A DNA stretch of 64,000 nt from assembly GCA_009103225.1 (NCBI GenBank), contig RHPI01001616.1, positions 622,731 through 686,730 of the forward strand. The letters are read 5' to 3'. Shown here in pieces: positions 3,276 to 53,321 of this stretch. Position 1 is the first letter of the stretch, and each line of letters opens with the position of its first letter. The position numbers and the translations under genes are program-made. The notes under the pieces were generated by a model that was not told the DNA's origin, did no database searches, and worked only from the letters and a program-made list of their open reading frames with translations. This stretch comes from Chlorokybus atmophyticus. Its lineage: Eukaryota > Plantae > Mesostigma and Chlorokybus algae.

Positions 3276-5813
3276 AGAGTCTGCATGCAGTGAGAGCACG
3301 TGAGGCATGCAAGTCAGACCCTCTGCTTGCACTTGGCTGTGACAACCACATATGCAACCCACACTCAACTTAAACCTACGCATTGATTTACAAACCAAGG
3401 ATTGTACTTCTGTAATGACTATGAGCAGACGCTATGGCTGTGCTTGCTGAGTGCTGGTCAGGCAAATTGCAACGACAAACAACTGCCGCAGTGTGGAGCG
3501 CTGGGTGCTAACAAGACCGGCTGACCGAGCTTCATGCTAAGAAGCTGTATGCAACATCAGTATATCATGCCAGATTGAGACACCTGGACACACAGCAATC
3601 AACCAGACGTGCGAGTACTATCATGTAAGATTGTGAATTGCTAGCATTGCAATGTCAGTGACGACATATGACTGCAGCAGCCTACAACAACCGGACAGCA
3701 GCTATGTCGAGTGTCGCTTAGACTTGAGTTCAAGGAAGTTCAAGGCGTGAGTAAGCATATCGCTGGCACAGAAGTGTCGCAAGCCAGCTGTCAGATATAC
3801 GCCCGCACTGTTTGCAACTCGGCTCGGCAAGCGTCTACGAAGTGCAAGTTGACAGAAGCCTAGGATGCAAGCCTCCAGACGCCAACCTTTACACTTACAC
3901 AAGAAGGGCTGCTGCACGCCAACGTCAACTATCAGCTCATCCCGCCGCTACTGCGCCACCCAGGAAGAAGGCGACTGTAAGCAGGTCGAAGCAAGGCAAG
4001 CGCAGCTACAGCAATGAAGCGTCCGCCACGGACGTCAACCAGCGCCCACGCCGCCCACGCCGCCGCCGCCTAGTGCTGCTGCGCTGTCCAACCTGTCCTG
4101 CATGCGCGTGCACACAGGCGTGAAAGTTACACACACATTCCTTTTGGAAAGAAATGTAAGCACAGCTTTGCCTGAAAGTGTCACATCAATCATCCGGCTG
4201 ATGTGATCCTCTCCACTGATCCCGACTCCAGTCCAACCGATCAGAATGAACTTAGGTTCAGTGAGCGACATGAGTCGCACTGTGCGTCGCGATGCCCGCC
4301 TGCGGATTTGTGCTAGCGTTCCGCAGCGTGCGTCTCGTTGATTGTGCTATTGGCACCATGGGGTGACCCATATTTTGACCATTGGGGTCCCATCATGGGA
4401 CTCCCATGTTGACCAATCAAAGGTGTATAATGTTACCCGTATGCGGTCTTTCGCCTGCTGCCACATGATGTGTAATGTAGTTGCATAGTGTGTTTGTGCT
4501 ATGCTAAGCCGAGAGACGCGCCGTAAGATAATTAAACTCTTATTCTTTTTGTGTTGCAATTGCAGCGGTGCTCTTATTTGGTGCGTTTCATACTTTAGCA
4601 TCAACTGCTTCCAATTCCCAATGCAACCTGTTAAGTAAGAGTGTCCTACTGCTCTCATAATAATCTTATGAGAGCTATAGTGGGACACTTGAGTGACAGG
4701 TTTTGTAGAATGCAACCCATCGAGAGACGGTGGAGGGTCATTGATGTGAAAAAAAACTCGCGTCACATCACCTTTCACTTTACCTGTTACTCGTATACCA
4801 CATGTGGGAGAAGGTTTGGGCCACGGCTGCGGCCCCTTATATAGCGTCACAAAGTGTCATTGAATGTGGATAATTGATTGCCGATACCATTCGATGCCGA
4901 CTCTATATAAATAGTTTTAATGGCATGTTTCGTTAACAATTTCCGAATATTCATCAGCAATTCCATAAGTTAAGTGATCGCGAAGCAGCGCGCCGTGAGC
5001 TGTACAAGAGAGGAGGCTCAATACCGCCTTTAAAACCACATGTCATGAGCGTAGCACCGCTATCGACTTCGACGCACGCTAGGCAATTGCTACCGATGGT
5101 GCATGCCATGACAAGGACGTCGAGTTTTGTGTCTGCATTTACGGACGTAGAAAGTTACAATGCATGCAACAAGTACGACGCGTGGAACTTGTTAAGCGGG
5201 GAGGCACGTCTTGTGCGGCTACACGACCACCGTGATCTTGTCCATTAATGTGACATTAATGGACATTGAGTGGATCTCTGCTGGAGCCGGCAACACGCTA
5301 CAAATAACCTTAACACTCAGCTGGCTACTATTTATACTACTTATATTTTACAATTACCAAAAATTGGACTTCTCTAAGCCACCAAGTTGCAATCCGCACA
5401 TTATTCTACATCCGTGCCATATAGCGCCAGAAGCATATGAAGGCCAACATGAGAAAATAAGTGTTAATGGTTGCAACTATCAAGTCATAGTGCAGCACCT
5501 GCACAATTTCTGAAATCATTTTAAACCTACACAATATCACGATTCAATCGGCAATCATAAAATAACACATGATGTATCGGGCATATCATGGCGATTGACC
5601 ATCCAATGACATCAATACATGCTGACAAATACATGGCACATTCCCGTGCGCACACATGTTTGAAATGTTTTTTATATAACAACACTATAACACATTGCGC
5701 GGTCGTAGGCCGCATAGCTGTTGGTTTTTTTGAAGCTTTCCTTATTATGTAAATGTGACAATCAGCTCAACGAGTTGTTTCTTATAAACGGACACATTGT
5801 AAGGAATGCCCCC

Positions 5814-5993: not shown

Positions 5994-6853
5994 CCCCCCC
6001 CCCCCCCCCCCCCCGAAAGCGGGTTTTAAACAACTAATTCATTGCAACATGTTACCCAAGTTGCACAAAAACAAAATTGTTACAGTACATGTACCGACCG
6101 GTCAAGTGTTAGACAATCGGTAACAAGCATTGCGATTGGCAATATAAAATGCTGGATTCAATGTGCACATTGTGTATATTGATATAATCGCTATGGTTTT
6201 ACTTGTTTTACGATATGTATCGCAGAGTTTTGCGCCTTTAATGAACTCGGTCTAGGATTCATCAAGTACATTTTGCCTTCAAGGCAAATGTTACACGGTG
6301 ACTGACTAAGGACTGAGGGACTGACTGGTGCCTGAGCCTGCCTGAGCTTGCCTGTCGCTGCTCAAAATGTTACATTTGGACTGTTGGGTTTGCCGTTGGC
6401 TTGAGTGGACTGACGCAGACGGCCGCGGGCCAAAAGTGGTTGTCAGTGGCACTAACCGGCCGAGAGTTGTCAACCAGTTACCCTTTGGTCGAAGTGCACC
6501 GACGGCCGTTAGCCGGTAGTTACGAACAGCTGACAGCAATAGCCGGCAGTTTCTTTGCCATTACACTGCTGTTAATATGTGACCCTAGTCGTTTGACAAA
6601 AGTTGGCAACTCTTGCCGTAAGCCAACACTAACATGCCATTATGGCATGATGCAGCTTGTACAAACCTTGGACTGATTGTTTGGTCTTGCACCTAAAAGC
6701 CCACAATATATACAATGTACCGGCAGTGGTGTGAGTATGTCCACTTGCAACTGAGCAGCCGACTTGCACATGAAACTACCCTATAACATTGAGTCTAGCT
6801 GTCGCACTCATGCGCAGCTTGTCAACCCGTGGTGCCTGCCTTATAACTCCTCC

Positions 6854-7300
6854 TCAAACCCCCTCCTCCTGTTCCTCCTCCAACAAGTCTTCTGCTTCAA
6901 CATCGGAGTCATCTTCATCCGCTGCCTCGCTCGCTGACAGTACAGCGGCTACTTCGTCCTTCAGCTTGAATGTCAGCGCCTCGCCGTGCACGCGCATGCG
7001 CTTGATGGTCGCTTTGAGAGTGACCACCTGCATTTGGTAATGCTGTAAGAGTGGCGTGCTGCCAGGACTAGCCCATCAGCATACACATGCTTACCTCGTC
7101 TTTCGCTTTGTTGCACTCTGCCAGGCAGACAGTCAGCCAGCCGCGCTGCTCTCGGTTCACTCTGACCAACATGGCAATCTGCAAGCATACTGCTTAATTA
7201 CCGCTGGAAACATTAAACTAGGTCATGGATTACCCGTTCGTGGTACTCCGCAGCTTCTCTTTTGCGGTTTGTGAGCTCCCGCAAGTAGAAATAGGTTGTG
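6854..7300 (-). CDS. 3' exons of an unknown coiled-coil protein with acidic tail
   Basis: Exons ..-7234, 7178-7095 and 7027-6854 splice in phase 0 (GTAATC/GTAAGC donors, CAG acceptors) to LRELTNRKREAAEYHER-IAMLVRVNREQRGWLTVCLAECNKAKDE-VVTLKATIKRMRVHGEALTFKLKDEVAAVLSASEAADEDDSDVEAEDLLEEEQEEGV*. 5' end unresolved. Confidence 0.5.
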
Positions 7301-8154
7301 CATTTGCGAGATTGGTCATGCTGATCATGTGCATGACACTGGAGGTTGTGCATGAGGGTGTGCATGTGGTATTGACAGTGTATGTCAAGTGCAAGATACT
7401 AGAGGCTGTGCATGTGCAAGATAAAAGAACCCTAGCATGTGGCACTGACAGTGCATCGTAACCCACCTTGGTTATGCCAGTCTTGTTTGGTCCCTTCAAT
7501 CATGTCGCCGTGGTCGCAGCTGCTGGTGGGTCGGATGTTCTTAGAGGCAGTATTGTGGTGTGCCTTTGCCCACTCGGAGGGGGAGCCCTGTAAGATGTCA
7601 CCCGAGTCACTGTTGTCATTGGCTGTGCCCTTGGTAGGCATGGTGGGGTTTGACACCAAGGACACCCCTCCGACACCCTGCCCGCCCTGTGCAAACATGG
7701 AATTCATCCCGGACCTCGACCACAATGCCCACTACGCCCCTGGCAGCGCCGCCAACGATCCACCAAACGCCACATACCCTCGGCATCACGCCCCTGTAAG
7801 GGCATAGCTTGGCGGAGCTATCAATGGTGTTTTCATGCGCAGGCACAGCACTTGTCAACAGTACGAACTGCCATTGCCACTGTACAAAGATACCATTTTA
7901 ATAATATCTTTTGGCAAAGGCATCTTCGTACCATTGAAACGGTTCAGTCAGGATACATATGCAGAGACTCACCCTGAACGTGCAATGGCTCGATCGTACT
8001 ATAATAATGGTACGACGGAGCCAGTGAATGGCGGCCAAGTTTCCCGCCTCTGGCATGCAAGGGTAGCGGCGGCGGCGGCGGCGGCGGGTGTGCGTGTTGC
8101 TGGATAAGATGCAGATTACATTGGCGACACCTGTGTCGACGTTGGTAGTAAGAT

Positions 8155-11100
8155 ATGGGAGTCCTTTGTCCGTATTGCCACATGCGCTTCGCCACACGCA
8201 GCGCGGTCAACATGCACATTATTAGCAGCAGGGTGTGCAAGCAAATCAAGCTGTATGTCGCCCAGCGTCCATTACAGTACGATGCGGGTCATGTTGAACC
8301 GGGGAGTTCGATCCAGGATGCGCACATGCTTGATGTTGAAGGATTCCTCTAGGAGAAGCACGCACAGCAGCAATAGGAGGAAGAGGAAGTGAACGAGGGC
8401 TTTCAATGTGTGCGTGTACCTGAGAAACCTGTGGCACGCCAACATGGAAATGGAGGCGTCCCTTCGCACGCGTCGGAATCCAAGTGGTATGGCTTGGAGC
8501 ATGCTCTTGCAGTGGCATTCGTGCAGTGCAACAACGGCCAAGGCCTGTCGGCCTCCGACATTGGGCGGATCATCAAGTGCATCCGAAATGCACACTTCCT
8601 GACGGAAGAGCTCCAGTAGGAGATCGGTGTGCATGTGGCCAGCTACCTCCGGACCACAATTGCTTTCTCTCAGTCTGAGGTGTGTTCACGGTGTGCGGTG
8701 CATGTGCTTCAACCATCAGAGCCATGTCACATATGCACATGCGAGTGTGCTGCCGTATCAGAATTACGTGACGGCTGACTTGCACAAGCCTAGAGACCCT
8801 GAGGATCAGGACATCAGCGTCACATATATGCCGGCCAAGGTCTGTGAAATGCAGTATCTAATGCAGTATCGATGCAGTATTTATCTATCTATTCTAAGGC
8901 CATCATGCCTGTTAATGCTCTTGGTCGGAGCAGGTATGGCTCGCATGGTTGTATGGCAATCCACATGCCGCCAATGGCTTCAGTCTCCAGTACAGTGGTG
9001 ACGAGCACAGCTTTGGCCATCCTTCCACGGGCGATTGGTGGAAAAATGTGGAGGTGGATTTGAGGAGAGAGGTGGGGGAAGCGTCCTACTTGGCGCCTGC
9101 CATTCTGTACAGTGACAAGACCACGCTGGGCAGCGCGGACAAGCGCTCTGGCTACCCTCTGATGGCATTGCTTGCCAACTACAGTTGGGACATGTATGCT
9201 AGCCACATGGGGGTTGTTATGATAGCGCTTCTGCCGGTGGTTCACGCAGTGGCCGGGCATCCCACCTGGGCGCAGGGCAAGAAATGGTTCTCCATTCGGA
9301 AATGTGAGATTTTTCATGACGCTTTGAATGTAGTGTTAGGGGATGTGAAGCGGGCGAGTTGGGAAGGTCTGCAGCTTATTGACCCAAATGGCATCGAGCG
9401 TCGTGTGTTTCCCGCGCTTGCCAACTACATCAGCGACTTGCAGGTAGTGGGCATGCATCGTTGTAACCGGATGCAGCCTGCCAGCAAACAGTGCATGGAG
9501 GATGTTGTCAATAGAGCATCTGAGTCTGTCGAGTTGTAGGAGACTGCCACACTCGCACGCACTGTGTCGGGCAACCAAATAGAACATCCTTGCGATGTTT
9601 GTCTCGTCACCAAATCGAATCTGTTGGAGATGGATAAGGACCGAGAATTGAGAACCGAGGCCTTCTACACATTAGCAATACATTAGCTGCGGGCGGACCT
9701 GCATAGCGGTGTTAGGAATGCACGCCAGACAGCCAAGGCTTTCAAAGAGCAGCACTTCATGCATGTCGAGGAGGTAATGGTCAAATTATCGGCATTTGTG
9801 AGGATGAATGGCTTTCCGTGAAACCAGGCAATGTGGTTTGGCAACAGAATGCATTGTGGGGTTGGCGACAGCCGCAGGTGCCGGGAGCTGACTGCTACTC
9901 TCGTCTTGCCCCTGACGCAATGCATGTGCTGGGAGGCATCATTGACCACCTGCTTGCTGCTGTGTACGACGCTATGAAGGAGCGAATGCGTCCATCCACG
10001 AGACAGATTCTGCAGGCTAGGCACGTTTTCGGTGTTGCTTTTGTGTTGAACACAAAAGCCAATGACACGCGCTCACAAGCAGATGTGCACAGGCTGAATG
10101 CATGCAATGCGACCCTACGGGTTTCACACTTCAAGGCACTCGCAAGCACAGTAGATTTCTTCCTGTCCGACCACTCCTTTCAGGTGGTGGCAAAAGTGGC
10201 GGTGCTGCAGCTGCTGCCGGTCCTTACAGACGGTTTGCTGCTAGACAGTGAGGGCAACGATTTCTCCACCATTGCTGCCGCATCGCTTGCCCAGTGGAAC
10301 AAGAAGTTGCTCAAGGCGCATGAACACACAAGAGAGACCCTGACCAAAGCCGACAACGAGCTGGCTGCCTTCAAAGCTGCAGTGTTGCATCCGCTACTGT
10401 CGTCATATTCTGCACAGGAGTCAGGTTGGAAGATCGAGAAGATGCATGCAGCTCACTCATTTTGGGCCGGCAATTGTCAGCTGTGAACATCCAGATTGGT
10501 TCAGCGCCAACCGCATGGAGCAGGCGCACGCCCAAAATATCAAACGGTGGGCGCGTAGTGGCAACAACCGAGACTACCAGGCATGTATCTTGAAGGCATG
10601 GAGCTGTGCGGAATATGTGATAGAGGAGGTGGCATGGTCGTGGATCCCGAGATGCGCTCGGTCATGGCGCAGGCGCGGCAGCAGTGCTGTAATGTAATGG
10701 AGAAGACAGACAAGTTGCTACGGATGGATGTGCTGACAAGGAGGGAGTCCAGCCCGTACTGGAGCGGATCTGCGCGTAGCCGCCAAGTCGCCCTGAAGAC
10801 ATTTGCCGACAAGCTGCCTGCCACCCTGGAGAGCTGGTTGAGGAGGGAACAACTGAAGCTGGCCGACGAGTGGCGTGCTGTTCGCGTGGTGAACGGAGGC
10901 GCAGCGGTGTACATGACATCAGGAGTCAGCATGGCGCGCGCAGCTGGGATGTTCCATGGGCAGCCTTGGTTCTCTACACTTGAGTTGGAAGGTGATGAGG
11001 ACGCTGTGAACGTGACATGGTGGGCTCAGGCACTCATTTTTCTGCGCGTGGTGGTGTGGGATGGTAGCGGCGAGCGCGTGTGGAAGGAGGTCGTGTTTGT

Positions 11101-11305
11101 CCGTTGGTACACAAAGCTGGATGTGACGAGCGACACAAAGTGCATCGCTCTAGAATGGGAAAAGCGTCGAGGGGGTCCACATCTCGATGTCGTGACTCTG
11201 GAGCAAGTAAAAGGCATTGTCCAGCTGCTCCCCATGTTTGACAAGGACAGCGCCCGTGTACAAGAGGGCAAGTATTGGGTGAACGTTCACTGCACTTCCA
11301 CGTGA
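8155..11305 (+). pseudogene. Plavaka-family (CACTA-like) transposase: N-terminal C2HC zinc finger, Plavaka catalytic region, C-terminal BAH-like region; spliced, with premature stops and one frameshift
   Basis: Motifs in order: CPYC-x12-H-x6-C; HPSTGDWW; PAILYSDKT; GYPLMALLAN; ALLP; FHDALNVVL; DPNGIERRVFPALANYISDLQ|E; CDVCLVTKSNL; LAPDAMHVLGGIIDHL; WKIEKMH(+1)QLTHF..FSANRMEQAH..IKRWARSGNNR; RAAGMFHGQPWF..WAQALIF..VFVRWY..QLLPMF..YWVN. TAG stops at ~8350, ~8374, ~8617, ~9683. Confidence 0.85.
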
Positions 11306-11508
11306 CACATGTACTTGTCTCACTACTCTGAGTTTGGAGCATATCAGTCAGTTAGGCATTGCTAATCGTATGCCAAGACTTTTGCATGTGGACGTGTACA
11401 ATACCGGGCAGCTGTCACTGCACAACTGTCACCACAATCGAATGTACCATGCAACATTTAACAATCAGTCCGCCGTGTGGCATTAAGCATCAATACAGTG
11501 CACCACAC

Positions 11509-12462
11509 TCAAGCCTCATAATTCCATGACACAGGAGGGTAGTCACAGCGCATATCCATTGTTTCAAGCATGAGACGCCCTATGCACTCCGCCATTGCGG
11601 CAGGAACTGCATTCGCTATGGTAACGGCCGAGGTCATTGATGGCACTCCCAGCGCTGTATGCCATGCAGCAAAGCCGCCCCTGGTGCTTGGAAGGCCATA
11701 GATCGTGTACATTTGCTGTGGCGTGTTTGATGTCACAATTGTCTTCTTCGCGCTAGCGGACAGGTGCGGCAATAGCAGTCCAACTGCCTTGCCCGCGTGC
11801 GAGCAGCGTGCTGGTGGGGTAGCTACCACTGGCTGTGTCTCAAACGGACGGTGTCGGAAAGTTGATAGGCCAAACATCGTGCCACAAAGGGACATATTGG
11901 GTCTGAATGAGGAAGCTGCTCCTGGCACATTCTCAATCACAAACTTGACCAGGCTTGCAAGCAGCAGACGTCGGACGAGCGGTACCATATCCTGGTGTCT
12001 CCAGGATGTGCCATGTGCCGCCCGTTGAGGTGCCGGGATAGCACCTGAATAGGCCTGGCATGGTGGGCTGGCCCAGATGAGCTCGTACTCGCTCAGCTCT
12101 CCTGCACTCAGGGTGCATACATCGCGGTGTATGAAGGGCAGCGGGTACTCAAAGGAGGGACTTATGTCCATCCCGGTCACGTCAAAGCCTGCGTGGTATA
12201 GACCGACACTGGCACCGCCACCGCCGCAGAATAGATCGAGTGCCCTTGGTCTGCGTGTGCGTCCAAGCTTGTTGTCAAACGGCGTGTATGTGGTCAAGGC
12301 TGGCCGTAGTGCTGGCCAGGGAATAACAATGATGCCGTCCGGGCTTACTTTGCTATTGACGTTCTCCCCTCCGGCGCGCAGAACGAGGTGCCCCGTCAAT
12401 TGATGTGTACGCGAATACGTTGTGCCCTTTGAAGTTGATGGTTTGTGGTCGATCACCGTCAT
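11509..12462 (-). CDS. C5 DNA cytosine methyltransferase, short phage/actinobacterial type
   Basis: Uninterrupted 317-codon ORF with motif I LDLFCGGGGASVGL, GFDVTGMDI, motif IV WASPPCQAYS (catalytic Cys), motif VI FVIENVPGA, LCGTMFGL..RHRPFET (motif VIII) and motif X IANAVPAAMAECIG. Confidence 0.9.
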   Translation of the reverse strand: MTVIDHKPSTSKGTTYSRTHQLTGHLVLRAGGENVNSKVSPDGIIVIPWPALRPALTTYTPFDNKLGRTRRPRALDLFCGGGGASVGLYHAGFDVTGMDISPSFEYPLPFIHRDVCTLSAGELSEYELIWASPPCQAYSGAIPAPQRAAHGTSWRHQDMVPLVRRLLLASLVKFVIENVPGAASSFRPNMSLCGTMFGLSTFRHRPFETQPVVATPPARCSHAGKAVGLLLPHLSASAKKTIVTSNTPQQMYTIYGLPSTRGGFAAWHTALGVPSMTSAVTIANAVPAAMAECIGRLMLETMDMRCDYPPVSWNYEA

Positions 12463-12643
12463 CGAATACTATAGGGTGCTGCCCTGCAAAGACATATTCC
12501 ATTGCACCATGCATATATGATGCGTCCTCAATCTCGCACGCCACGAAGCGATGCAGACTTGACGCTTGCTTGAATGATTCCACAACGCCCGCATACCAAT
12601 CCCAATTCAGCGGCCAATGCACCATAACACTCACACCGATCAG
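12353..12643 (-). pseudogene. Tudor/Agenet-like domain immediately upstream of, and overlapping, the DNMT ORF in a different frame
   Basis: E*LIGVSVMVHWPLNWDWYAGVVESFKQASSLHRFV resembles the plant Tudor-like pattern L(V/I)GxxIxVxWPxDxxWYxGxVxxF (MSH6/PDS5-type). Flanked by TAG codons at 12644-12646 and 12353-12355. Confidence 0.6.
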
Positions 12644-12856
12644 CTACTCGCATCCCAACTTAACTGCGTTCCGCGGCCGATGCAGTGCGCTGTCCAAAGG
12701 TCGATGGTCTGCCTCCTCTACAGCGGCCAAGGGATGGAACGGCCCACGCCCACACCGTGGAAGACTGCTTTGAATGCGACAATAGCTTCAACATGCATGA
12801 AACAAGCATACGCCCAACATAACATGCAGTGATACGTCGCGGTCCACTCAGCCGAA

Positions 12857-13234
12857 TTACCTCCACAGCATCCACCACCTGTTCACTAACCACATGTCCC
12901 GGTGTTGTCCATGTGAAGAAGCGCATGGGTTCCCTCGCCACTCGAAGCATGAGCGCGAGCACGATTCGCACACGCACTGCACGCAATGGAAAAACTCGGG
13001 CTCCTTGCTCAGCACTTGGCCGAGGCGGCAGCCAAACACGTCGACATTGTGTGTGGTGTGATGCCAGCAAGCAGCACTAAAACCGTGGCACACTGTCTGC
13101 ACTCGCTGGCATTTGGTCAAGTGTGCTCGCATTTGCTGCCTACGGCCATTGGCACATACGTACGCATTGCATTGTGGGCACACCAAGCATGGTCTCATAG
13201 GTGAGGGGGAATCAAATGCTGCCGCCGACATCAT
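12857..13234 (-). CDS. Cys/His-rich zinc-finger ORF, possibly the N-terminal exon of the Tudor-DNMT gene
   Basis: CPQC-x15-H-x3-C followed by FHCVQCVCESCSRSC. Same strand as, and ~200 bp upstream of, the Tudor-like segment. Confidence 0.45.
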   Translation of the reverse strand: MMSAAAFDSPSPMRPCLVCPQCNAYVCANGRRQQMRAHLTKCQRVQTVCHGFSAACWHHTTHNVDVFGCRLGQVLSKEPEFFHCVQCVCESCSRSCFEWRGNPCASSHGQHRDMWLVNRWWMLWR

Positions 13235-15769
13235 GCAAAATAGGAGTCGGCACGGCTGCCCACAAACTGAGCAAGATTTTAGGGTATGGGCATCAATTTA
13301 GGGTTGCCAGCTTACAAACCCTAAATGGGTCAAACTTCAAGTGAAGCACGACTGTACCATGGACGCTATTGCAAACCCATGCATGGTACTACATCTATAT
13401 GAATGGTACTCCATCCGTTAATGGTACTACAGTACAAGGATACTCGCATACTACCTCGATCGTAGAGTAATACTGTGCTGTCATTCCATGGAACCCAGAG
13501 CGCTGTCCGAAGTTGTTACTGTCAACCACGCTCTGTACCAGCGAGGTATGCAAGCCATGCACTGACTCATGCGTCGGGCGGTCATCATGCACATGTACAG
13601 CCAATGCTTCTGACAACAGCAGATCTCGGGTGCATCATGCACCATGCTGCAACTATACATGTACCTACATGGTTCACAGGAAGCCAACACAAAACTACAA
13701 TACATGCACAATTGTCATTAAGGCGGGGGCCAAATCACCGCCGACACGTTGGCGTCTTGCATCAAGCGTGGCGACCAAAACGGGTGAGGTTGCTTGTTGA
13801 AGGGACACGCTTGTAGATTCTTTGATTTATTTGCCACGGTCTTCTGATGTGCTATGATGCAGACATGGCACATCGCTTTCTTGCAACAGGGCGTCTCCCC
13901 ATCCGCTGAGGGGGGTGGCTCTTCAATGCGACAAATCAGTACACATGGTGCACGCGGGTGTGCAAGCTGCCTCAGCCACCAAACTCTGTTTACGCGTTGC
14001 AGGCTAAGGGAATTCCCATTTGAATGGCGCAGCATAACGCTCCACTACCTGCTCGATCACCTGTTGCCCATCTGCCGCCATACACCACCTGCTGGTCTTG
14101 ATGGTCTCGTCCAGCATGCGTTCATCAAGGCCCTCGACATGGCTGTCGTCACTCGTGTACTCCCCCGCATCGTCATTTTCTTCGAGCTTCCACAGAATCA
14201 GCTCGACGTGCCGTATGACATACAGCCACTGCTAGCCAAAGCATGCCAAGTACAGCTCGAATGGTTTTACTTGCCACCCAGTATGTTTGCTCGTGTGGCA
14301 CACATCTCGACCCGCATCGGTCGACATCGACAGGTACATCTGCTGCAGCAGGTTGAAGTTCTGCTCCGCAGATAGCTCTTGCACATTGCCGGGGTGCTGC
14401 GGCAGCAACACCACCATCATATCGAGGACGGCGAGGGGCAACAACGTATTACGGATGGCCATATCGTGTATGGGTTCCAACCACCGCCATTCCCCAGAGG
14501 TCTGTTTAGACCGCATTTTCCGCGTTTGCTCCCACTTATTGCAAACTTTCGTCACCCACCTCGAGGCATGCCGCATGCGGTGATGCAGCGCGTCTTGGGC
14601 GTACTGTAGGGTGATCAACTCCTTTGCACTACGAGTCAACCCCCCAAAGCGTCTGCGCGTCGGTGCTTTGAGCTTAGGCAGCTCGTGCCGCACCGGCTGT
14701 CTCTCTGGACGATGCTGAGCAGCCACTTGACGCTGTAAACCCGCCTGTGCCTACTCAGGACACGCAATCAGCCCCAGTGAGGCTTCAAGGCGCTGTGCTT
14801 CTTCTAATGTTGTAACGATGCCTCACCTTTCCTTTTTTGGTCCTGTCAGCGTCCTTTATTCCAATAACCTTCTCTTTTTTTTGGCCAACCTGCACATCCT
14901 GGCAGGCGCTCTCCGTGGCACTGTCACTTAGAGGAGGTAAGGCGTTATCTTCTTGCTCCACAGCCTTGCGCTTGTTGGTTGCCTCCCGTTCCTCCACGAC
15001 CTCATGTTGCTTCATGAGGTCGAGCATGAAGCCTTTGTCTTTCAGCGCAGCTTTCAGGACACCTCGATCAATCTCTTTACCAACAAGACAGGCTGGGATC
15101 AATGTGGCAAGCTTAGAGGGAGAGGGCGAGCTACAGCTGCTTCTTGATGGAGATGCCTCCGGATGGTCAGAGTGCGGTGGCAAGTGAGTATCCGCGGCAG
15201 GAAGGGAGGGTGCTGAATTGGGATTGCGAGCATGTGGCTGTGGTTGAGGGGAGGCAGGATGTGCAGAACACTCGGCTACTTCTTGCCTAGCACACGAAGG
15301 CGAGGCCTGAGGCGTTGGCGCAGCACTCTGAGTCACAGCCGGTGGTAGCGGGGAATTGGCAACGCCATTCCGCCATTCTCCGATCAGGTGTTACCTCCGG
15401 TGGCACTTCATGTTGAAGGTATTACATGGGTGATGCTTGTATCCGGTCAGCTTGCCCTTCATACAGGAGTCGAGGGTCGAAGGTACCAGGAAGAAGCGCG
15501 TGGACTCCAGACTTAGCAAGACGGTCGAGTCATGACGGACTCCGGACCAGGCTGCTTGGTAGAGCCTTGGGAGAAATCGCGTAGCTTTGTGGATACGTAA
15601 GCTTAGCAGGCGTGGCTTAGCTTGTTGGAAAGCTCTAGTTGTGAGCTAGACAGCGTAGCTTACAGAACAACAATCGGCTGAGTATAGCGCACGCGGTGCT
15701 TGCCAATGTAGACGTGTGTAGAGACTGGCGGGGTATAAAGCCCAGACTTGTTGCAATGAAGATGAGAGG

Positions 15770-16597
15770 TCACGATGTAGCATGTGTGCGGATGCTATGG
15801 CAGTAGCAGTCATGCTCTTGTGTTGATGTTGTTGGCGTGTCACTTGCACGTGTGTATGTCAACACTTCATGCATAGGCCACGACCAATGTTCGGTGCTTG
15901 CAGGCTTGAGGAGCCAAAAGTGTGATTCTGGCTCATTAGGAGCAGTGTTGCCCACCACCAGGACTGAGTTGAGGGCTTCGTTATTTCCAACCCAAACTGC
16001 GCTGCCGGGCTGTGGCACCCACTCCCCATGCTCGCGCTGAACGGTCACGAAGCCAATCAACAAGCCCAGCTTGTTGGCAAACATGGTCATTTGCAGGTGC
16101 TCGACGTAGACATCTTTTCTCTGCACGATCTGTCGCACCTTGGCCATGGCTATGTCAATGTTGCAATTGACATCTGCCAACATGGTCGCAGGCAGTTTGT
16201 TGTAATACTGCACCATCTCTCCCGCGGCACCAGTGGCTCTGCAGAAGTCTAAGATTCTGCTCGCCACGCCTGCATCGACAGCCTTGGCGGTGATTTTGCG
16301 GAGAGTGTCCCCCCTACCGACGTCGTCAATGGTGTTTAGCATGGCCCAAAATGTGCTCGAGCTGGGGCACTTGTGATCATTCAGGACACTTTGCGCTATG
16401 GATGGCCTGGCGCGAAATACACAATGGTAGAAGCAATTACCATCCGTCGGCGCATTGAAGTGGTCCCATGAGGCGAGCTGGCCACCTAACAAGACTGATG
16501 GCCGTATGCGGGTTGCACCTGCCAGCTCCTCTGATGACTCGCTGGCAGGTGGTGACCCCTGCTGCATGCGCATGCAGCACGCAAATGGTGTGTCCAA
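15770..16597 (-). CDS. OTU-like cysteine protease (deubiquitinase-like) domain exon
   Basis: PTDGNCFYHCV (OTU D-x-x-C box), YVEHLQMTMFANKLGLLIGFV (helical box) and ESHFWLL (catalytic His box) in correct order. Confidence 0.75.
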   Translation of the reverse strand: MDTPFACCMRMQQGSPPASESSEELAGATRIRPSVLLGGQLASWDHFNAPTDGNCFYHCVFRARPSIAQSVLNDHKCPSSSTFWAMLNTIDDVGRGDTLRKITAKAVDAGVASRILDFCRATGAAGEMVQYYNKLPATMLADVNCNIDIAMAKVRQIVQRKDVYVEHLQMTMFANKLGLLIGFVTVQREHGEWVPQPGSAVWVGNNEALNSVLVVGNTAPNEPESHFWLLKPASTEHWSWPMHEVLTYTRASDTPTTSTQEHDCYCHSIRTHATS

Positions 16598-17596
16598 CTG
16601 TGGACGGCAAGAGTCACAGTGACTGATAAAATACCAGTTTGGGGCAGACTGCCGGCTTCAACTTGCAGTGAGTGGGGTAAGGTAGGTGCAGAAGCCACAT
16701 CGGTTGTTGCATTGTGCTGTGGTCTCGCCGGTGGCGGCAAGAGGGATTGTTGCCCCGCAATCACCGGTGCAGCTCGTGGAGGTAATGGCAGTGCATGAAA
16801 GACTGGTGCCGCAGAAGGTGGTTGCGCTCTGGCTGCGAGGGGAGCAGGAGCGGCGGGTATGACCACTTGTGCATGCAATAAGGGGGGCTATATACAGGAC
16901 CCAAGATAAGATGGCTCAACAATGTTGCAAAGGCCGAATATAAGCTTATGCAGTGTCTGACACATTGTTATCAAGGCACGAGCATAAAAGACAGCGACTT
17001 ACCTCAATGGCCCGTGGGCTGCATGGAGCAGCGGAAGCCATGGGCGCCGACAAGGTGGTATTGAGTGCACTCTCCCCGCCACCCTCGATCGCAGACTCGT
17101 CATGGAGCTCGTGAGCCATGGGCACATCATGCGCCACTGCCCCAATGGACATGTCGGGATTCAACAGGCTAGCATGCATGTTAAACTGATGCCGCATTGC
17201 CGCCACGCCCATCAGCAAGTGGGATTGAAGGACCAGTTGATGGGATTGAATCCAGGATTGCATAGGAGCTCCTACAGGCCCTAGTGCACTGTGGTGCTGT
17301 CAACCAATCACATGCGAGTTAGCTGCATGCTTGCGACACTGCAATTGCAATAGTCAACTGCGTTACACCGTCATCAGTTGGTTGCTTCAAACAGTCACCT
17401 GCGGCATTGCTGGTTGATGCACGAATGACTGCATTAACTGCGTCATTGCTGGTTGATGCACTATTGGTTGAATGCCGGACGAATGGCCACGCGCTCCTGT
17501 GCTCAAATCCAGCCTACTTCGTTCGGCACGCGCGCGCGACTTCGCACGCTCCCGCACATCTTAGCATGCAAAGGTAGGCATGCATTGGAAGTGCAT

Positions 17597-18201
17597 TGTT
17601 ACGACAAGGGTCCGGCCATCTAAGCCATAGAAGACCATGGTGGGATTTATGACTATTCCCATTCTTATGTATTACGCCCAGCCCCCCTGGCTGCCGTAAC
17701 ACACCTCCCCCATTAGAATGTAGCACGTCCTCGGCTACTTCTTATAGGGTTCTTTTTTCTTAGCCCTCCGCCCGCGGGCGACCGAGCCATCCCGAACGGA
17801 TTCGGTGCGGTCATTTCTGCGACCGGCGGGTCAACACCGCGCGGTCGTTCTCGTTCTCGAGAACGTTGTCAGCCGTTCTCTCGAATGTTCTGTTCGAGCG
17901 ACCGTTCTAGATCGCGTTCTAAACCGTCCCTTTCGTTCCTTCCGACCTGCGACTTGCCCAAGGCCGCGGGTCCCACCGCGACTTTCTCAAGATCGCGGTG
18001 CACTTTCCTTGGAGCTTTTGCCAACCGAAAAATCGCCGCTCTATCCCCCTTGGAAGTCGAGCCCACGACCTTTAAGTTGTCAACTCCGATACCAAATGTT
18101 ACGACAAGGGTCCGGCCATCTAAGCCATAAAAGACCATAGTGGGATTTATGACTATTCCCATTCTTATGTATTACGCCCAGCCCCCCTGGCTGCCGTAAC
18201 A
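17597..18201 (-). mobile_element. TRIM (miniature non-autonomous LTR retroelement), 605 bp
   Basis: 105-bp LTRs at 17597-17701 and 18097-18201 (TGTTACG..CGTAACA, 2 mismatches); 5-bp TSD TGCAT; on the minus strand PBS TGGTATCGGAG and PPT ATGGGGGAGG; no coding capacity. Confidence 0.92.
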
Positions 18202-18882
18202 TGCATGCAGTAAACATGCATAGCGAGATTGGCAACAACATACCGCCTCCCAGCTCTGTCTATCTGCTGTGGCTTCCGCAATGTCGGCTTGATTATAGGG
18301 TGGGTATGGGTGAATAGTGGAGGCCTGCAGCCACGCTACACGTATCACATGGACTGCGCTAAAAAACAAATTGCTCGTGCAAGGAAATGCATGTGACTGT
18401 TGAGCGTACCTCTGCATTCCTTTGTGCTTGTTCCCACAGCCGCAATTGGTCCCGCATGGTTCGGACAAGGGGCTCCAAGGACTGCAGCTCCCGATTCACT
18501 CCTTGTTGCAGACAGCGAGCCACCAAGCAGCTCTTGGTGTAAAGATGGTCCTTAATGGCTTGCCTGCTGTTTTGTCCAATGTTGGTGATGCATGTTGGAC
18601 AGCCCCATTGCTGACGCCTGCCATGATTCATGACGTGGCGCTCGGTAGTAGCTGGCTTCGCTGCTTGAACTCTTATGACCACAACTTCTCGCAAGATGAG
18701 CCACGCCGCCGCGGCTCCGACTCCTGGTCCTCCGCCTCCTAGTCGAACCCAGGCCCACTATGCCTGATATTCGACTCGTCATCAACCTGGTGCCCCTGCG
18801 TGCCATCATCCGGCCATAAATGAAGCGTGTTTGGGTGAGTGCACGCTAACTCCCATTTGGGCTGATCAAGCAATGCCTCTGT

Positions 18883-19042
18883 ATGCCTTTGTCGTACCAT
18901 GAATCGTACGACAGAGCCATTGTACGGCAATGGCTGGGGTTGGACGAGAGATGCCTTTGTCGTACCATAAATGTTACGACACAACCATTGTTACCAATGG
19001 TTGTACAAAGCATAGATGGCACGAATGCATAAGTCGTACCAT
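18883..19042. repeat. Two-and-a-bit tandem units (~68-74 bp), each with two hairpins
   Basis: ATGCCTTTGTCGTACCAT at 18883 and 18951, partial copy at 19025. Stems TGTCGTAC/GTACGACA and AGCCATTG/CAATGGCT in unit 1; CAACCATTG/CAATGGTTG in unit 2. Confidence 0.85.
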
Positions 19043-19209
19043 CAACCACAGAAGCAAGGACGCACTACAAGTGCGACTCTACTGCGGGACACTAGACGTT
19101 CAAAACCGCCTCATTTTCGTTTTCGCGCCTCGTACATTCGGGCGGGCCAACCGGCGGCGGAAGCGCCACTATCAGCTAAACAGGCGGCACCCGACTATCA
19201 GTTAAAGAG

Positions 19210-21032
19210 ATGCCTCGTGGTCCATCCGTAGGTGCACCTCGTCGTGGAGGCCGACGCTAGTTGTCCACATTGCCCCCAGTGTTCAACCAGGCAACCGTCG
19301 CCAACCAATCGCAGCAAGACCCCGTGCTAACGCCCAGCACATCACAACAACTCCACTTGACACCGCAGTTGCAAGGGCAAGCTAGACTGCATGCATTCTT
19401 AATGCACTGTGCACGTTGCTTCTTGCTCAACTTCTGACTTGGATGCTTTCTTCTTTCATGACTGGCACAGTGACTCACTGCATGCGTTCTGGATACACTG
19501 TGCACGTTGTTCTTCTTTTGCAACTGTGAGAGTTGCATCTTTCATGGCTGGCAGCATGACTCATCCAGTTGTGCTTGCAGAGGGTCGATTGGAACCCCCA
19601 ACCCAAACGCATTTGACCGTGACGTGGCAACTTCGGCCGTCAGCAACCCTTCCACAAGCAAGTGGAAGATTGGTAACGAGGTAAGCACTGTGTGACACTG
19701 TGACATCGTGTATATGTGTGTAACGGATTGTTCTTCTGTGGACAGCATTTGCGAGATGCCGTCGTTGAAATCATAAACGGCCACTAGGTAGAGAGCCACG
19801 TTTATCCCAAGGAGGACACTATTTGTAACGTCATGTGTCAGGTGCTGTGAATGCTTCATGACCGCATTGAACCGTGACACTGACCAACCTGCCCGTGACA
19901 GGTAGTTGGCTTCGACCATGACGACGAGGCCGATGCGGCCAAGTTCTATGAGGTGTACTGGGCTCCCAAGGAGTGCCCCTTCCACTGGAGTGTCGCCTTG
20001 AAGAAAGCTACGCAGGTCTGGTCTGAGAACGCCACCAAGATCAAGCATGTCCTTCAGAAGGAGTACAAGTAGACGCTGTTTAACAGCAACAAGCGCAAGT
20101 GAGTTGGGTCCCTCACTACCATGTTTGCTATGCAACACTGCCTTCTTACTCAGCCTCCATACACACGTACGCATCTCGCCTATTGTAACCGATTCAATCA
20201 GGCACATCGACGCCCTAATGGACCCCAAGACCCAAAAAGCCCAGATGCGCAACGCTCTAAAGTAAGTCACAGGCACTATTCTAGCCTGGTGCAGGCTCAA
20301 CTTGAACTATCTATATCGTGACTAATGCCTTGTTGGTATGACTGTTGCAGACAAGTCATGGCGGAGATCTGAGGTGACTGACACTGCAGACCTGGAGCGG
20401 AGGAGATACATCCATGAATGGGGCAATCCCATAATCTGGCAAATGATCATGCAATGCTGATCTTACGCCGTCACTATACCTAATCGCCGGCAGCTGACAG
20501 TCAACCACCTCGCATACCTGTTGCTTACGGTGAGCACTCTGAACTCCATCATTAGCAATTCAGGAATGCTGTAGCCCCAAACTACAGGTTTGTAGACGTG
20601 TTGCAGTGAATAGTGGCTTTCGATGCCACTAAGACATGCCTGTAAACTACGCAGGTGGAGCGCATCCTAAAGGGCAAGGATGGAGACCCTCTTAGCTGCC
20701 AGCATCGACACACATGAAGAGTACCTCAGCGAAATCAGCACCATAATCATGTTAATGAAGCGGGAGATGAGGCAACGGTACGCAACCCTCCAGCCATTCA
20801 CCCTTGTGAAACGCCGCACTGCGTCTGTGTCGAATACCTGAAAGATCTCAATTGGCGCCGGCCGCAAGAGACAGCAGCTCGTGACCCGCTTGCTGAGGCA
20901 GAATCGGCATTTAATTGGCTGGCACAACCGTTTGAGGAGGAAGAGCAAGCTCCGGCGTCTCCTCCACAGGCCCCAGCGCGTGGTGCTTTGCTCTATGATG
21001 ACGAGCAAAGCGATGACGAAGAGGAGCTGTAG
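19210..21032 (+). pseudogene. Unknown spliced gene with acidic C-terminus, many nonsense codons
   Basis: Starts MPRGPSVGAPRRGGRR*LSTLPP; contains VGFDHDDEADAAKFYEVYWAPKECPFHWSVALKKATQVWSENATKIKHVLQKEYK*; ends LLYDDEQSDDEEEL*. Confidence 0.45.
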
Positions 21033-21428
21033 CGCAGTTGGTAGTCCATTTAGCTGGTAGTGTACATAGCTAGCAATGTACACTACCTTGTAGCGCTACA
21101 AGGCTTTTGTGACTGAGTGTTGTGCATCTTAAACCAGCTCAGTCAATCGTCATTATGCTCATGCATGTCAATACTTGCATCCCTATGACATACAACAGAA
21201 CTGCATTCAAGTCACATAATCAAACTACAAGCCTTGGCAAGTGACTGAGAGACACTGTACACATTTCAGGTACATGTACACAGCACAGGCACATAACAAT
21301 GCTGGCAGTCAGTGACAGTCGCGTGTAGTCAAGCTATGCAAATACATATGACGACAATTAGGCATTAATCACCTTCAGTTGTTAAGGAATGCCTTATTTT
21401 GTCGATAATTACTTAGTTGGTGCTTGTA

Positions 21429-21799
21429 AATTAGGCTTAGTCGCCTGCGCTGGACTTGTGTGTAACCTGCAGGTGCCTGTCACATAGGCTGAGTCACCTA
21501 AGTAAGACTGATGCGTAATTTGCAAGTGCCTGCTAATTAGGTGTAGTCACCTGTTAAGGCCTGATGTGTAACTTACAGGTGCCCGTTGATTAGTTGTAGT
21601 CACTTAGTAAGGCCTGATGTGTAACTAACAGGTGCTTGTGAATTATATAAAGTCACCTGTTAAGGCCTGATGTGTAACTAACAGGTGCCTGTTAATTATA
21701 TAAAGTCACATGTTCAGGCCTGATAGGTAACCGACAGGCGCCTGTTAATTAGGCATAGTCAAATGTTAAAGACCAAATTGTAACAATAAGGGCCTGATA
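21429..21799. repeat. 53-bp tandem array, 7 units (subterminal-repeat-like)
   Basis: Units start at 21429, 21482, 21535, 21588, 21641, 21694 and 21747. Consensus approx. AATTAGGnnTAGTCACCTGTTAAGGCCTGATGTGTAACTAACAGGTGCCTGTT. Confidence 0.9.
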
Positions 21800-21820
21800 G
21801 TAACGGAAGTTACTATCAGG
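21793..21820. other. Perfect 12-bp hairpin with GGAA loop at the end of the 53-bp array
   Basis: CCTGATAGTAAC-GGAA-GTTACTATCAGG. Confidence 0.9.
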
Positions 21821-23458
21821 TCCCTGTATCGAGATTACAGGTGGCCTGAGCCACGACAGTCTATATTAGTGTCCTCAGGTGCACGGCCGTTGCCAATATT
21901 TAGTCGGCCGGCAGGGAAAACATATTGCGATGTTCGAAGTTCTTTTATGTAAATTACAGAGTTTAAACTTCAAATTTGCATGGCGCTGTTAACCTTGGAA
22001 GACAGCATGTGGCTAATTGCTGCAAAGATGCTATATGCATGCTTGCCTCTCCTATGCTCGCCCACAGCGAGGTCATACTATCCTGCAGCTAGAAATCCAA
22101 GTATCGCATAAAAACAAAACATTGTAATACAGCGTTAAGTATAGCTTGATTTACTATATCACTTACTGTTGGACATAAAGCACGCTTGGCATATGTTAAT
22201 GGCAGCTAGCTATTGCATCAATTCCTGAGAGGCATCATTCAAATCCACTACGACATGGAGTATGCATGTTCATACAATATGCAAGTGCAGCCCTCACATT
22301 AAGCAAAACTTGCCACCTGCTCTGTTAACACAACTCCAAACCTGTTTCTCTCGCTCACACGCAAATAAATGAGACGCTTGCATGCGGACATCGTCCGCAC
22401 AAATCTTGCAGAAAAAGTCGCCATTAAACTTGTCGTAGTCGAAGCATGTAGCACCAGCTGCGCGTTTGCCCTTCACAATGAGGGTACAAGTTGTCTACCC
22501 ATGCGCGTCATCACCTCGCGTCTATTGTTGTATAACCGCAATATGGCAATATGTCGACATTGAAGCCGTCTTGGAAGTGTGAGATACGACACGACTATTG
22601 GGATCCATCATAAGTAGTGCGTGGTTCACAACCCCGCCCTCGAAGCATGTGTTGTAGGGCCGCTGCAAGTGCTAATCGCATAGTGAGCTCCACATGACAC
22701 AAGGAGCGGTGACAGGATGTTGATATACAAACGGGGTGTGAGCGGTAGTGTTACCGGCTACTATAGTGATTGAGGTGTTGTGGAACATAATATTTTGCCC
22801 GGTGGTTCAATGTGTGCCGATTGCGGTGATCAATTGTGTATGAATACCCGAGATACATTTTGCATACAAGCAACATGTGTTTGCATGTGACAATGAATGT
22901 GGCACACATGATGCACGAGGAATCCTACTCCACAACTACTGTACAAGAGCGTTCAACCACACAATACCCTACCATACCGCTTCCAATAATTTGTGCATGG
23001 CTGTCAACACGATTCTTAGTCTGTGTTTGCTCTCACCATCATTCAGTCCAATCTGTGCATGTATTCATGCCACGGCACTGATACAGCATATCCAGACTGC
23101 TCTCAGCAGCAGTAGCGTGCAGTAATGGCTCCTCCGCACAGCACACATTGCAACATGCGCCTCTAGGCGCCCATTGCCTGGGCCAGATCAATATGCTGTG
23201 TAACACTACTGCTCCAACCCAGCGTGCTTCCAATACCCCATGCAGCAGCAGCAGCAATTAGCCACCTGTCCTCGCTGTGTATTCTTTGGGAAGGCCAATT
23301 GTGCAACAATGCTGGTGCCTTGGCATGGCACCCACAACGCCTAAGCGCACACCACAAGCTGGCTTGATACGAGGTGGCTAGGCACCGAGCATCACAGCAG
23401 GTGAATAAGCTTCTCCAGCCCAAAACCGAAACCCAAACCCACAACCCCAATCCCATTG

Positions 23459-50979: not shown

Positions 50980-52281
50980 ATGCAGTGGCCCATCAATAGG
51001 CGGGTTAGGCAGGCCCAATAGGTGTACAGAGTAGTGGCTCCTGCAGAGTAGTGGCTTCTGTCTAGTAGAGACAGGAGCGGGACAACATTAGGGCCAATGA
51101 CTTAAGGTTGTAACTTGATATAGGCCACCGCCATAGTCGTTCATGTTCTGGCTGCGGGGTGCTACAGCCAGTGCCGCCCGACTGATAGGCAGTTAATCAA
51201 TGTCGTGTCATACCTCATGGATGCCCTTGCTGCTACCCAGATACATATCATATGCTATCATGACATGTGTGTGTTATGTACCAATGGTTTGCCAATGCAT
51301 TGTCAAGTTTTATGTTGACCGCATTCGCATCATAGCATGGCTTCTCAAGTTTGCGTACATTTGAGAAGGTGTGGCTTAGGAAACGTTATTTTTTGTTGTT
51401 TATAGCCAAATTATAAGCGTGATAAGTCAGCAATAGCCACATTGGCTCATTATAGCTACTTTGATTGAAGGCTAAATCGGTTAATGTAATTCACAACCTT
51501 CACATAATGATGCCACCGAACCATAGTTGTGATATGTAGGTGACTCGTATGCAATCCATAGCAATCTGAAACGCAATGCTAGCTCATATTGCACTACTAT
51601 TATACAAATAACAATGTGCATGATTGTAACAGTCAAGGCCAAATTTTGTGATTGTCATGGCCGTTTTAGGCCTTATTTGTAAAGTACATGTTTTTTATGA
51701 CTTGTGGCGGATATCGGCGAGTTATGAATCTGCCGCGGATATCAACCGGGGCCCAAGACCAGCAGCAAATTAGGAGATCTTTGGTGCGTTGAAAAGGTCT
51801 AGAAGTGTACTACAAGATTCTGCAATTATATCTTAGCTTCTAGTTCCGTCTAGCGCTAGAATCGTCTAGACAGTAGCATGTGCAGACTGGTAGGTATAAA
51901 AGTGACATTCTACAACTTGCAATACAACCTTTAGCTCCCTAGTTTCTGGTGTGCAAGCTTGGTGGTGGCTAGCAGGGGTTGCTAGCGTGTGTCCACTGGT
52001 GTGTGCTTGCTTGTGTGACGATCCAAGGCGCTACACAAGTCGGTGTGTAGCTTCGAGCGCATGCGCGTGCGTACGCGAGTGGCGGGGCGCGCGTGTGTGC
52101 TTGGCATAGGGGGCAAGGTTCCGGTGTGAATACCGTGTCTTAGTGAGAGGGTTGTTGATTGGACCAACTCACAGGTGACAAGGCACGAGCACCGTCACAA
52201 CTGGTATCGGAGCACGGTTTACGAAGGTGAGAGAGGAAGTGTGTCGGCGTTTACACTTTTCATTCGGAAGCGGAGTGTAGT

Positions 52282-53321
52282 GTGTTAGTGGAGATGGAGG
52301 ATGCTCGCATGGAAGAGCTTCAAGCTGCTATCTTAGCATTAAGAGAAGAGCTTCATCACACGCAAGCGGCGGCACAAGCACAACGCGCGGCGTATGAGCA
52401 TGCGATGGCGCGTGTACAAATTTCCATGGCATCAAACTCGCGCGTGCATGTGAAGGTGCCAAAGCCCAAGCCATTCAGGGGTCAACGTGATGGAGATGCA
52501 GTGGATGAATGGATTTTTCAAGTATCGTCTTGGTTGAAGCTCACGGAGGTGCCCACGCATCTGCACGTGGAGGTTGCAGCGACATTGCTTGAAGGTGCAG
52601 CACTTGTGTGGTGGAGGCATCGATGTACGCGTGTTGCAAACGGGTTGGCGCTACCATTGACCACCATGGAAGAGTTGGCACTGGAGGTCAGGCATCAATT
52701 TGTTCCCGTTGAGAGCGTGAAGGCCGCACGCGACAAACTTGCAGCCCTTGTGCAAATGGGGTCGGTGATGGCGTAAACGGCCGCGTTTCAGCGATTGGTG
52801 ATGTCCATACCCAATATGACGGAGGAGGAGCAGCTGGACAGGTATACACGTGGGTTAAAACCTTTGGGGCGTAAAGAAGTGGAGCTACGGGACCCAAAGA
52901 CACTCGCGGAGGCTATACGCATCGCGGAGCGTCTCGACGCGTTGTACTTCAAGTCCACCACAAGAAACACTGACTGGAGGCAAAGGCATGGTGATCAGCC
53001 CCGGGGAGGCTTTCAACATGCATGGAGACGAGGAGAACCAAGTTTAGCACTTGCCAATGGAGGTGGAGCTGACGCTGGGCCTGCACCAATGGAGGTGGGT
53101 GCCATACACACGCATGGAAGTGAGGCGAAGCACGGCGGACGTGGTGAAAGAGGTAAAGGTGTGCGCAAGTGTTATGCGTGTGGGTCGACGGAGCATTTGG
53201 CGTACGGATGCCCCAAATGAAGCACGCAAAGGCCAACACCGGATGGCAACCCTCGCCGTGATCGTCGCTTCAACACCATGGAGCAAAATAGCGTGGAGCA
53301 GGAAAACGACTTCCCCCAGTA
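52282..53321 (+). pseudogene. gag: gag with CCHC zinc knuckle; internal stops at 52774 and 53218
   Basis: KVPKPKPFRGQRD..WIFQV; LLEGAALVWW; CYACGSTEHLAYGC. Confidence 0.9.

Follow-up and report, generated by a model that had tools for sequence, protein, structure and literature searches.

The open reading frame at 11509-12462 is best explained as the terminal exon of a gene that is spliced, is predicted to encode a Tudor-methyltransferase and is carried as cargo in a decayed copy, about 16 kb long, of a Plavaka DNA transposon (Table 1). We give this reading a probability of roughly 0.78. It draws on observations of the enzyme's family, the transposase adjoining it, a related form of the sequence which links the two, a frameshift and drift that is nearly neutral, all within or against the 64,000-nucleotide stretch of DNA analyzed here (the window).

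The frame runs for 317 codons on the reverse strand with no internal stop, as the preliminary description of this DNA stated, and it contains the motifs named there: I (FCGGGG), IV (SPPCQ), VI (ENV), VIII (RHR) and X (NAVP). They occur in the order of a C5 cytosine methyltransferase, together with a Rossmann-type fold: an alignment-based AlphaFold model of the catalytic part has a pLDDT of 89, and its top Foldseek matches are DNMT3B, DNMT1 and M.HaeIII, at 11-24% identity. The catalytic Cys, Glu and Arg-x-Arg are present, and Trp275 and Pro288 are replaced. Pfam DNA_methylase matches the frame with an E-value of 5e-5 and the PHROG 363 profile matches the enzyme with 6.3e-23. Matching phage records number 310 (186 from Mycobacterium and 52 from Streptomyces; top identity 36.8%), and in a homologue search 6813 of 7999 candidates passed E 0.001, the 120 best being 34-50% identical to the window enzyme. 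The distance from motif VIII to motif X, 73 residues, also fits PHROG 363, for which 207 phage-like rows give a median of 61 and a 5-95% range of 52-75. By sequence, the enzyme is a member of this small phage methyltransferase family.

Membership of the eukaryotic DNMT1/CMT, DNMT3/DRM, DNMT2, DNMT5 and DNMT6 families was considered and rejected: phage-like proteins are far closer (6e-42, versus profile E-values of 1e-7 for DNMT2 and 3e-6 for DNMT1) in a direct comparison outside which DNMT5, DNMT6 and ChloroDNMT fall, the trees having been built without eukaryotic DNMTs. A phmmer search of solved structures returned no C5 methyltransferase in the PDB at E≤0.1. The PHROG 363 match, the actinophage-rich hits and this lack of a PDB match uphold the earlier assignment to a phage or actinophage type rather than to DNMT1, CMT, DRM or DNMT3, and the ultimate source of the enzyme is likely prokaryotic or viral. 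Foreign origin cannot be read from composition, as the gene (GC 0.57, GC3 0.57) is not set apart from its neighbours (0.51-0.57 and 0.58-0.66).

The same description took the gene to be intact and without introns, which did not hold up. A related form is available as contigs of the public sequencing runs X1, X2, X3 and X5, known as lists of differences from the window; X1 and X3 come from one sample, and X4 and X5 contribute small shares only. An X1 contig spanning the whole stretch has two extra bases at 12387, and loose contig ends at 12384/12388 in X2, X3 and X5 fit the same two-base difference, so that the frameshift is shown or fitted in three samples from three studies. Because the related form has these two additional bases, codons 1-25 of the 317-codon frame are out-of-frame Tudor exon, and the ATG at 12462 falls, in another frame, in the two Asp codons of the Tudor-like domain. 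With the bases restored, the catalytic frame continues upstream into 12643-12395 and the gene extends across at least one predicted intron (12558-12484).

This upstream frame matches PDB entry 7DE9 in two pieces (phmmer E 0.002 among 177,635 PDB sequences; the best of three rows at E≤10), of which the piece at residues 41-52 is weak when taken alone. The entry is the Tudor domain of Arabidopsis RDM15 with an H3K4me1 peptide, according to Niu 2021 (PMC8184781). The donor at 12558 is the only GT among four in-frame GT/GC donors, and it alone restores an 18-residue spacing from the Tyr to the next aromatic, as between RDM15 Tyr623 and Tyr641. Mapped on RDM15, the H3K4me1 pocket is in register: Trp616, Tyr623, Asp643 and Asp645 are identical and Tyr641 is replaced by Phe, which together with the sequence match gives an aromatic cage and two Asp residues of the RDM15/PDS5 type (4/5 identical). 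Glu647, which in RDM15 grips H3R2 (PMC8184781, available text), is Pro in the window. Pfam finds nothing at E≤1 in the unspliced Tudor frame or its halves, and a single-sequence model of the unspliced frame (pLDDT 49.5) is uninformative on the fold. No Tudor-fused homologue occurs in 15 longer matches (seven inspected by sequence, the others by precomputed Pfam) or in the top 19 representatives scanned. As judged from sequence, the product of the gene is probably a fusion in which a Tudor domain of the RDM15/PDS5 type precedes a small C5 methyltransferase of phage type, and for the predicted pocket we rate binding of H3K4me1 at slightly better than even odds.

The gene model upstream of the Tudor domain, which comprises the TAG, a possible 94-nt intron and a possible Cys-rich exon, is weaker. 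At 12931 the window is one base short of the related form in X1, X2 and X3, and Pfam gives no match at E≤0.5 for the possible exon.

Table 1 Observed, predicted and candidate features of the methyltransferase gene and the surrounding element.
Feature	Position	Strand	Basis
~16-kb repeated element, Plavaka-type DNA transposon, candidate ends only	6078..21785	.	7-bp TGTTACA inverted repeat, AT both sides
Plavaka transposase, multi-exon, broken	8146..11305	+	PF18759
C5 cytosine methyltransferase catalytic part (PHROG 363), in last exon	11509..12384	-	motifs, Pfam, PHROG, AlphaFold, Foldseek
Frameshift, 2 bases of related form absent from window	12385..12387	-	X1 whole-stretch contig; X2, X3, X5 loose ends
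Second half of Tudor-like domain (FDDGD) and linker, spurious ATG at 12462	12388..12483	-	phmmer to 7DE9 residues 41-52
Predicted 75-nt GT-AG intron, in frame, stop-free	12484..12558	-	donor and spacing
First half of Tudor-like domain, cage Trp and Tyr	12559..12643	-	phmmer to 7DE9 residues 12-45
In-frame TAG directly upstream of Tudor domain, window copy	12644..12646	-	sequence
Possible 94-nt GT-AG intron	12718..12811	-	splice consensus and phase only
Possible upstream Cys-rich exon, same gene	12812..13234	-	difference tables X1, X2, X3
Unknown broken cargo gene	13500..15390	-	frames
OTU-like cysteine protease frame, 295 codons open (DGNC ... H)	15770..16657	-	motifs
Unknown broken multi-exon cargo gene, acidic C-terminus	18200..21031	+	frames
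53-bp tandem array near element's right end	21452..21769	.	repeat scan

A live element would make a spliced Tudor-methyltransferase whose pocket (Trp, Tyr, Phe, Asp, Asp) would bind H3K4me1 nucleosomes and tether an enzyme whose target-recognition region is very short. Once tethered, this enzyme would methylate cytosines of H3K4me1 chromatin, among them those in transcribed genes of the element itself, and a new copy could in this way set its own methylation state and not wait for host silencing pathways. By analogy with retrotransposon DNMTs, which methylate CG de novo (PMC5890265, available text), its target would most likely be CG. Self-methylation of transcribed element copies as the purpose of the gene is the reading that we tentatively put forward, but we give similar odds to a guiding role or to a target in host gene bodies. 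The fusion would then be real, and the protein would methylate or mark H3K4me1 host gene bodies, guide insertion or act on RNA rather than methylate the element. The very short target-recognition region (73 residues between motifs VIII and X, with a phage-like median of 61) leaves the target unpredictable; the accessible parts of two sources report that transposon reader domains often steer integration (bioRxiv 10.1101/2021.11.30.470311) and that the substrates of orphan DNMTs are hard to predict (PMC12344493). Set against these points, the family form retains all catalytic residues, the retrotransposon enzymes offer a precedent for de novo CG methylation, and a gene separate from the transposase would need a protein partner for integration targeting.

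Relatives of the enzyme were collected from a profile search of 1.84 billion representatives together with the first homologue search. In eighteen of them motifs VIII and X are separated by a long insert, with a motif distance of 135-224 residues in 12 of the 17 measurable proteins versus 73 in the window. Pfam detects MBD in four of the 18 and an N-terminal zf-CW in one, and because of these two kinds of domain the clade appears, from sequence, to have taken up chromatin readers more than once. Of the 22 clade rows (the window, the 18 insert proteins and three long proteins, two of them retroelement), 18 have the motif Y-x-[VI]-Y-G...R-G, which none of the 245 other rows has. In a tree of 51 rows and 210 core columns, with 30 of 240 phage-like rows sampled and P0129 and P0155 left out, the window groups with 17 insert proteins at moderate support (SH-aLRT 91, UFboot 89), and with the four of these that have a YPP-like C-terminal tail as it does (P0003, P0144, P0149 and P0152) at 88/84. 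A link to the reverse-transcriptase-borne P0130 and P0131 had appeared in a quick tree and is unsupported in the better one (0/55). Around the MBD clade, 160 loci gave no match to an MBD-like insert, Tudor, OTU or Plavaka, and ordinary phage-type genes dominate. Small methyltransferases with inserted readers form an as yet unnamed clade of 18 or more members.

Several of these relatives have distinctive architectures. In P0003, P0144, P0149, P0155, P0150 and 13 more, an MBD or MBD-like insert replaces the target-recognition region, one member having a CW finger, and one insert-clade member sits on a 245-kb contig. Two come from metagenome assemblies: in P0129 an enzyme of the family sits within a Gypsy polyprotein, flanked by RNase H and integrase, and in P0131 it lies upstream of a reverse transcriptase. 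P0122, P0139, P0143, P0151 and P0153 have two methyltransferase domains in tandem, and the Pithovirus tandem protein joins the small type to the canonical type.

The element itself is assigned to Plavaka from its transposase: PF18759 matches 8916-9536 with an E-value of 1.8e-20 and 73.9 bits against a cut-off of 26.3, and a C2H2 finger at the N-terminus matches zf-C2H2 below the curated cut-off (E 0.0037). The methyltransferase stop lies 203 bases from the transposase stop (11303-11305), in agreement with the convergence at about 200 bp described earlier. Over 5994-23400, contigs of X1, X2 and X3 cover 27, 28 and 29 of 30 bins, mostly at 90-99% identity, and X1 contig 3 covers 10348-12849, which includes the transposase end, the whole methyltransferase and the Tudor exons, with other letters at 78 of 2,502 positions. 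The placed contigs (1014 for X2 and 450 for X3) form a main path with many shallow variants, their depth not being copy number. There is little or no cover past about 22.26 kb, which fits an element edge. The methyltransferase is likely cargo of the same transposon as its neighbours, a relationship that the preliminary description missed along with the predicted splicing and Tudor fusion.

The candidate ends are the best of 153 end pairs and do not exceed chance, 42 of 300 shuffles reaching 7 or more; gapped inverted matching at the ends gave nothing above the null and terminal repeat searches of the element nothing above chance. They agree with the PlavakaA rule of Kojima 2025 (PMC12730594). 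Plavaka (CMCT) elements are expected to have TGT..ACA or CATCA..TGATG ends and a 2-3 bp target duplication; TGT..ACA ends also mark LTR-like inserts in the window. Plavaka is present in streptophyte algae according to PMC13519894, in the main text of which neither "DNMT" nor "methyltransferase" occurs.

Among the other genes of the element, the one at 13500-15390 has no Pfam family above cut-off and matches PHROG 15511 (E 3.5e-4) on a low-complexity stretch. The OTU-like frame has no Pfam match and weak phmmer matches to two viral L-protein chains (E 0.42-0.43), and the gene at 18200-21031 has no Pfam match. Two segments, 15391-15863 and 17589-18206, are later inserts, which contigs of three runs pass over. 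Within the second, 17597-18201 is TRIM-like, with 105-nt direct repeats 98% alike, a TGT start, an ACA end and TGCAT on both sides; the first includes a 471-bp piece that begins with TGTTAC and is possibly another small insert.

The 16-kb repeat might instead be a viral remnant, or a "giant repeat" cluster like that of Amoebidium flanked by a Plavaka transposase. The element ends are indeed unproven, the enzyme has phage and giant-virus relatives (a Pithovirus protein with E 3e-26, and a best viral match by fold), and giant-repeat clusters are described for Amoebidium in the available text of PMC11244446. However, the genes seem to contain introns; Pfam in 150 of more than 244 listed frames, and PHROGs in 10, revealed no viral hallmark family; searches with three insert-clade proteins, reaching close relatives only, found no viral contig; and the size and layout match the Plavaka elements of Bostrychia, which are 17-19 kb long with three accessory genes and a tandem array. 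We consider such an origin improbable and retain the Plavaka copy as our reading.

The window copy of this transposon is likely dead and most likely makes no enzyme. Across codons 27-317, it differs from the related form at 27 sites common to X1, X2 and X3, 19 of them replacement and eight silent. The resulting omega is 0.80-0.98 (kappa 1-4; p 0.66-1.0 against neutral), a count that excludes three further X1 sites at or above the frameshift. At the 14 replacement sites in the aligned core, the residue preferred by homologues (n=63) is that of the related form ten times and that of the window twice (p 0.04). Pro288 is kept in 63/63 homologues and Trp275 in 59/63, and both are lost in the window, as is Leu206 of motif VIII. 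X5 differs from the majority by four silent and four replacement base changes in two shallow contigs. In 47% of 20,000 trials a frame of 291 codons had acquired no stop once 27 substitutions were placed at random, and an open catalytic exon in a repeat decayed by 3-5% is not evidence of selection. The suggestion that the gene is possibly still functional or under selection is not supported, given its frameshift from the N-terminal exons and its omega; neutral decay, which the preliminary description itself had named as counting against it, is what the window copy displays relative to the related form. That the frame is an intact, intronless, horizontally acquired methyltransferase, functional or selected here and possibly translated from the ATG at 12462 with no Tudor domain, is very improbable: the long open frame with its catalytic residues, the confident fold and the chance that any single indel in the window is an assembly error speak for it, but the near-neutral omega, the loss of the near-invariant Trp275 and Pro288 and of Leu206, the ease with which a frame stays open by chance and the position of that ATG within out-of-frame Tudor codons all speak against it.

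The contrast with stop-riddled neighbours, on which intactness had been argued, stands in part. The transposase frames carry several stops, mostly TAG (8350, 8374, 8617 and 9684), and a frame change near 10355, but the contrast is weak, as the neighbours have long frames too (201-295 codons): seven frames of at least 200 codons lie in 6.0-21.9 kb, including those of 295 (OTU-like), 256, 248 and 207 (transposase) codons. Likewise, the several stops ascribed to the OTU gene are present upstream of its frame, but 295 codons are open and some of the stops are probably intronic because there is a GTAAGT donor at about 17001. There is no need to invoke an alternative genetic code, the stops being a mix of TAG and TGA with indels alongside. 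Differences on 5994-23400 amount to 741 substitution rows and 61 indel rows (40 and 12 listed individually). Element-wide against X1, 278 sites are A/T in the window and G/C in the run, and 106 show the reverse (p 7e-19), an excess expected from deamination of methylated C, which suggests that the copy aged under cytosine methylation.

We compared the element with known systems as described in the available portions of the cited sources. The giant Plavaka elements of the red alga Bostrychia (bioRxiv 10.1101/2025.02.11.637652) resemble the window element in their transposase, their size of 17-19 kb, their three accessory genes (PAG1-3) with a DNA methylase among them, their tandem array and their mostly decayed copies. 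Their PAG2 is a putative N6-adenine methylase with SET, whereas the window cargo is a C5 cytosine enzyme predicted to carry a Tudor reader, and its host is streptophyte-like. Fungal Plavaka/CMCT elements with TET/JBP (PMC12730594) share the transposase group and a DNA-modifying cargo, but that cargo oxidises 5mC as an eraser and the window cargo would write it. The Symbiodinium and Klebsormidium retrotransposon DNMTs (de Mendoza 2018, PMC5890265) are also transposon-encoded C5 enzymes, with a charophyte among the hosts; they are of DNMT3 type or SymbioLINE in retrotransposons, whereas the window has a DNA transposon in which a separate spliced gene encodes the PHROG 363 enzyme, and "Tudor" and "chromodomain" are absent from the main text. 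Mariner-1_OLpv of a giant virus (Bao and Jurka 2013, PMC3627910) is, as here, a DNA transposon with a C5 methylase gene, but it is a Mariner of a virus, encodes a restriction-like nuclease, and has neither a chromatin reader nor introns reported. RDM15 (PMC8184781) has the same five-residue H3K4me1 pocket in register with the window domain and no catalytic domain described; the window differs at Tyr641 and Glu647. Orphan eukaryotic DNMTs generally occur without companion domains, with Tudor unmentioned in the accessible text of PMC12344493.

The phage enzymes of PHROG 363 (for example Mycobacterium phage Pukovnik gp82) share the catalytic core at 35-47% identity and a short variable region, but their genes are unspliced, encode 210-250 aa and have no reader domain, unlike the predicted spliced and Tudor-fused gene of the window. 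The bdelloid N4CMT is said to be a similar fusion, of a bacterial methyltransferase with a eukaryotic histone reader (chromodomain); it reportedly belongs to the host, lays down 4mC and acts in transposon silencing and, unlike the window gene, is not transposon cargo. A literature search, mostly at title level and with subscription papers largely outside it, found no Tudor-fused C5 methyltransferase in a DNA transposon, no Plavaka with C5/Tudor cargo (TET and 6mA-methylase cargo are in print) and nothing on the activity or target of PHROG 363-type enzymes.

A broader proposition, which we regard as unlikely but worth stating, is that a phage methyltransferase lineage was repeatedly rebuilt into a eukaryotic reader-writer borne by mobile elements, the reader being Tudor in the window and MBD or CW in relatives, with an H3K4me1-guided Plavaka enzyme methylating transcribed chromatin. 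If true, early plants would have had, by way of transposons, a means of gene-body-type methylation that needs none of MET1, CMT and DRM. Known transposon cargo comprises erasers, SET enzymes and, in retroelements, unguided DNMTs, and a writer steered by an active-mark reader would be a new tactic in host-transposon conflict. The enzyme would also be a natural, small H3K4me1-targeted methyltransferase.

The rest of the window is eukaryotic, with an intron-split RuvBL/TIP49 gene (25.3-27.8 kb), Tim10, HMG-CoA reductase and a hybrid histidine kinase. Identity of the reductase frame to land-plant proteins is about 63-74% and to Closterium 65-66%, which suggests a streptophyte that is not a seed plant, probably an alga. 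A chromodomain Gypsy retrotransposon occupies 51622-57573 and 63142-63806, with LTR parts 98% identical and a third LTR copy at 87%. Inverted repeat arms that are 73-77% alike (350-702 and 5541-5809) surround an intron-split gene which presumably resembles a glycosyltransferase; the arms may be a small repeat present twice in opposite orientation, or the whole may be an element that captured a gene. The segment 29894-30733 contains nested palindromes and inverted repeats and is MITE-like.
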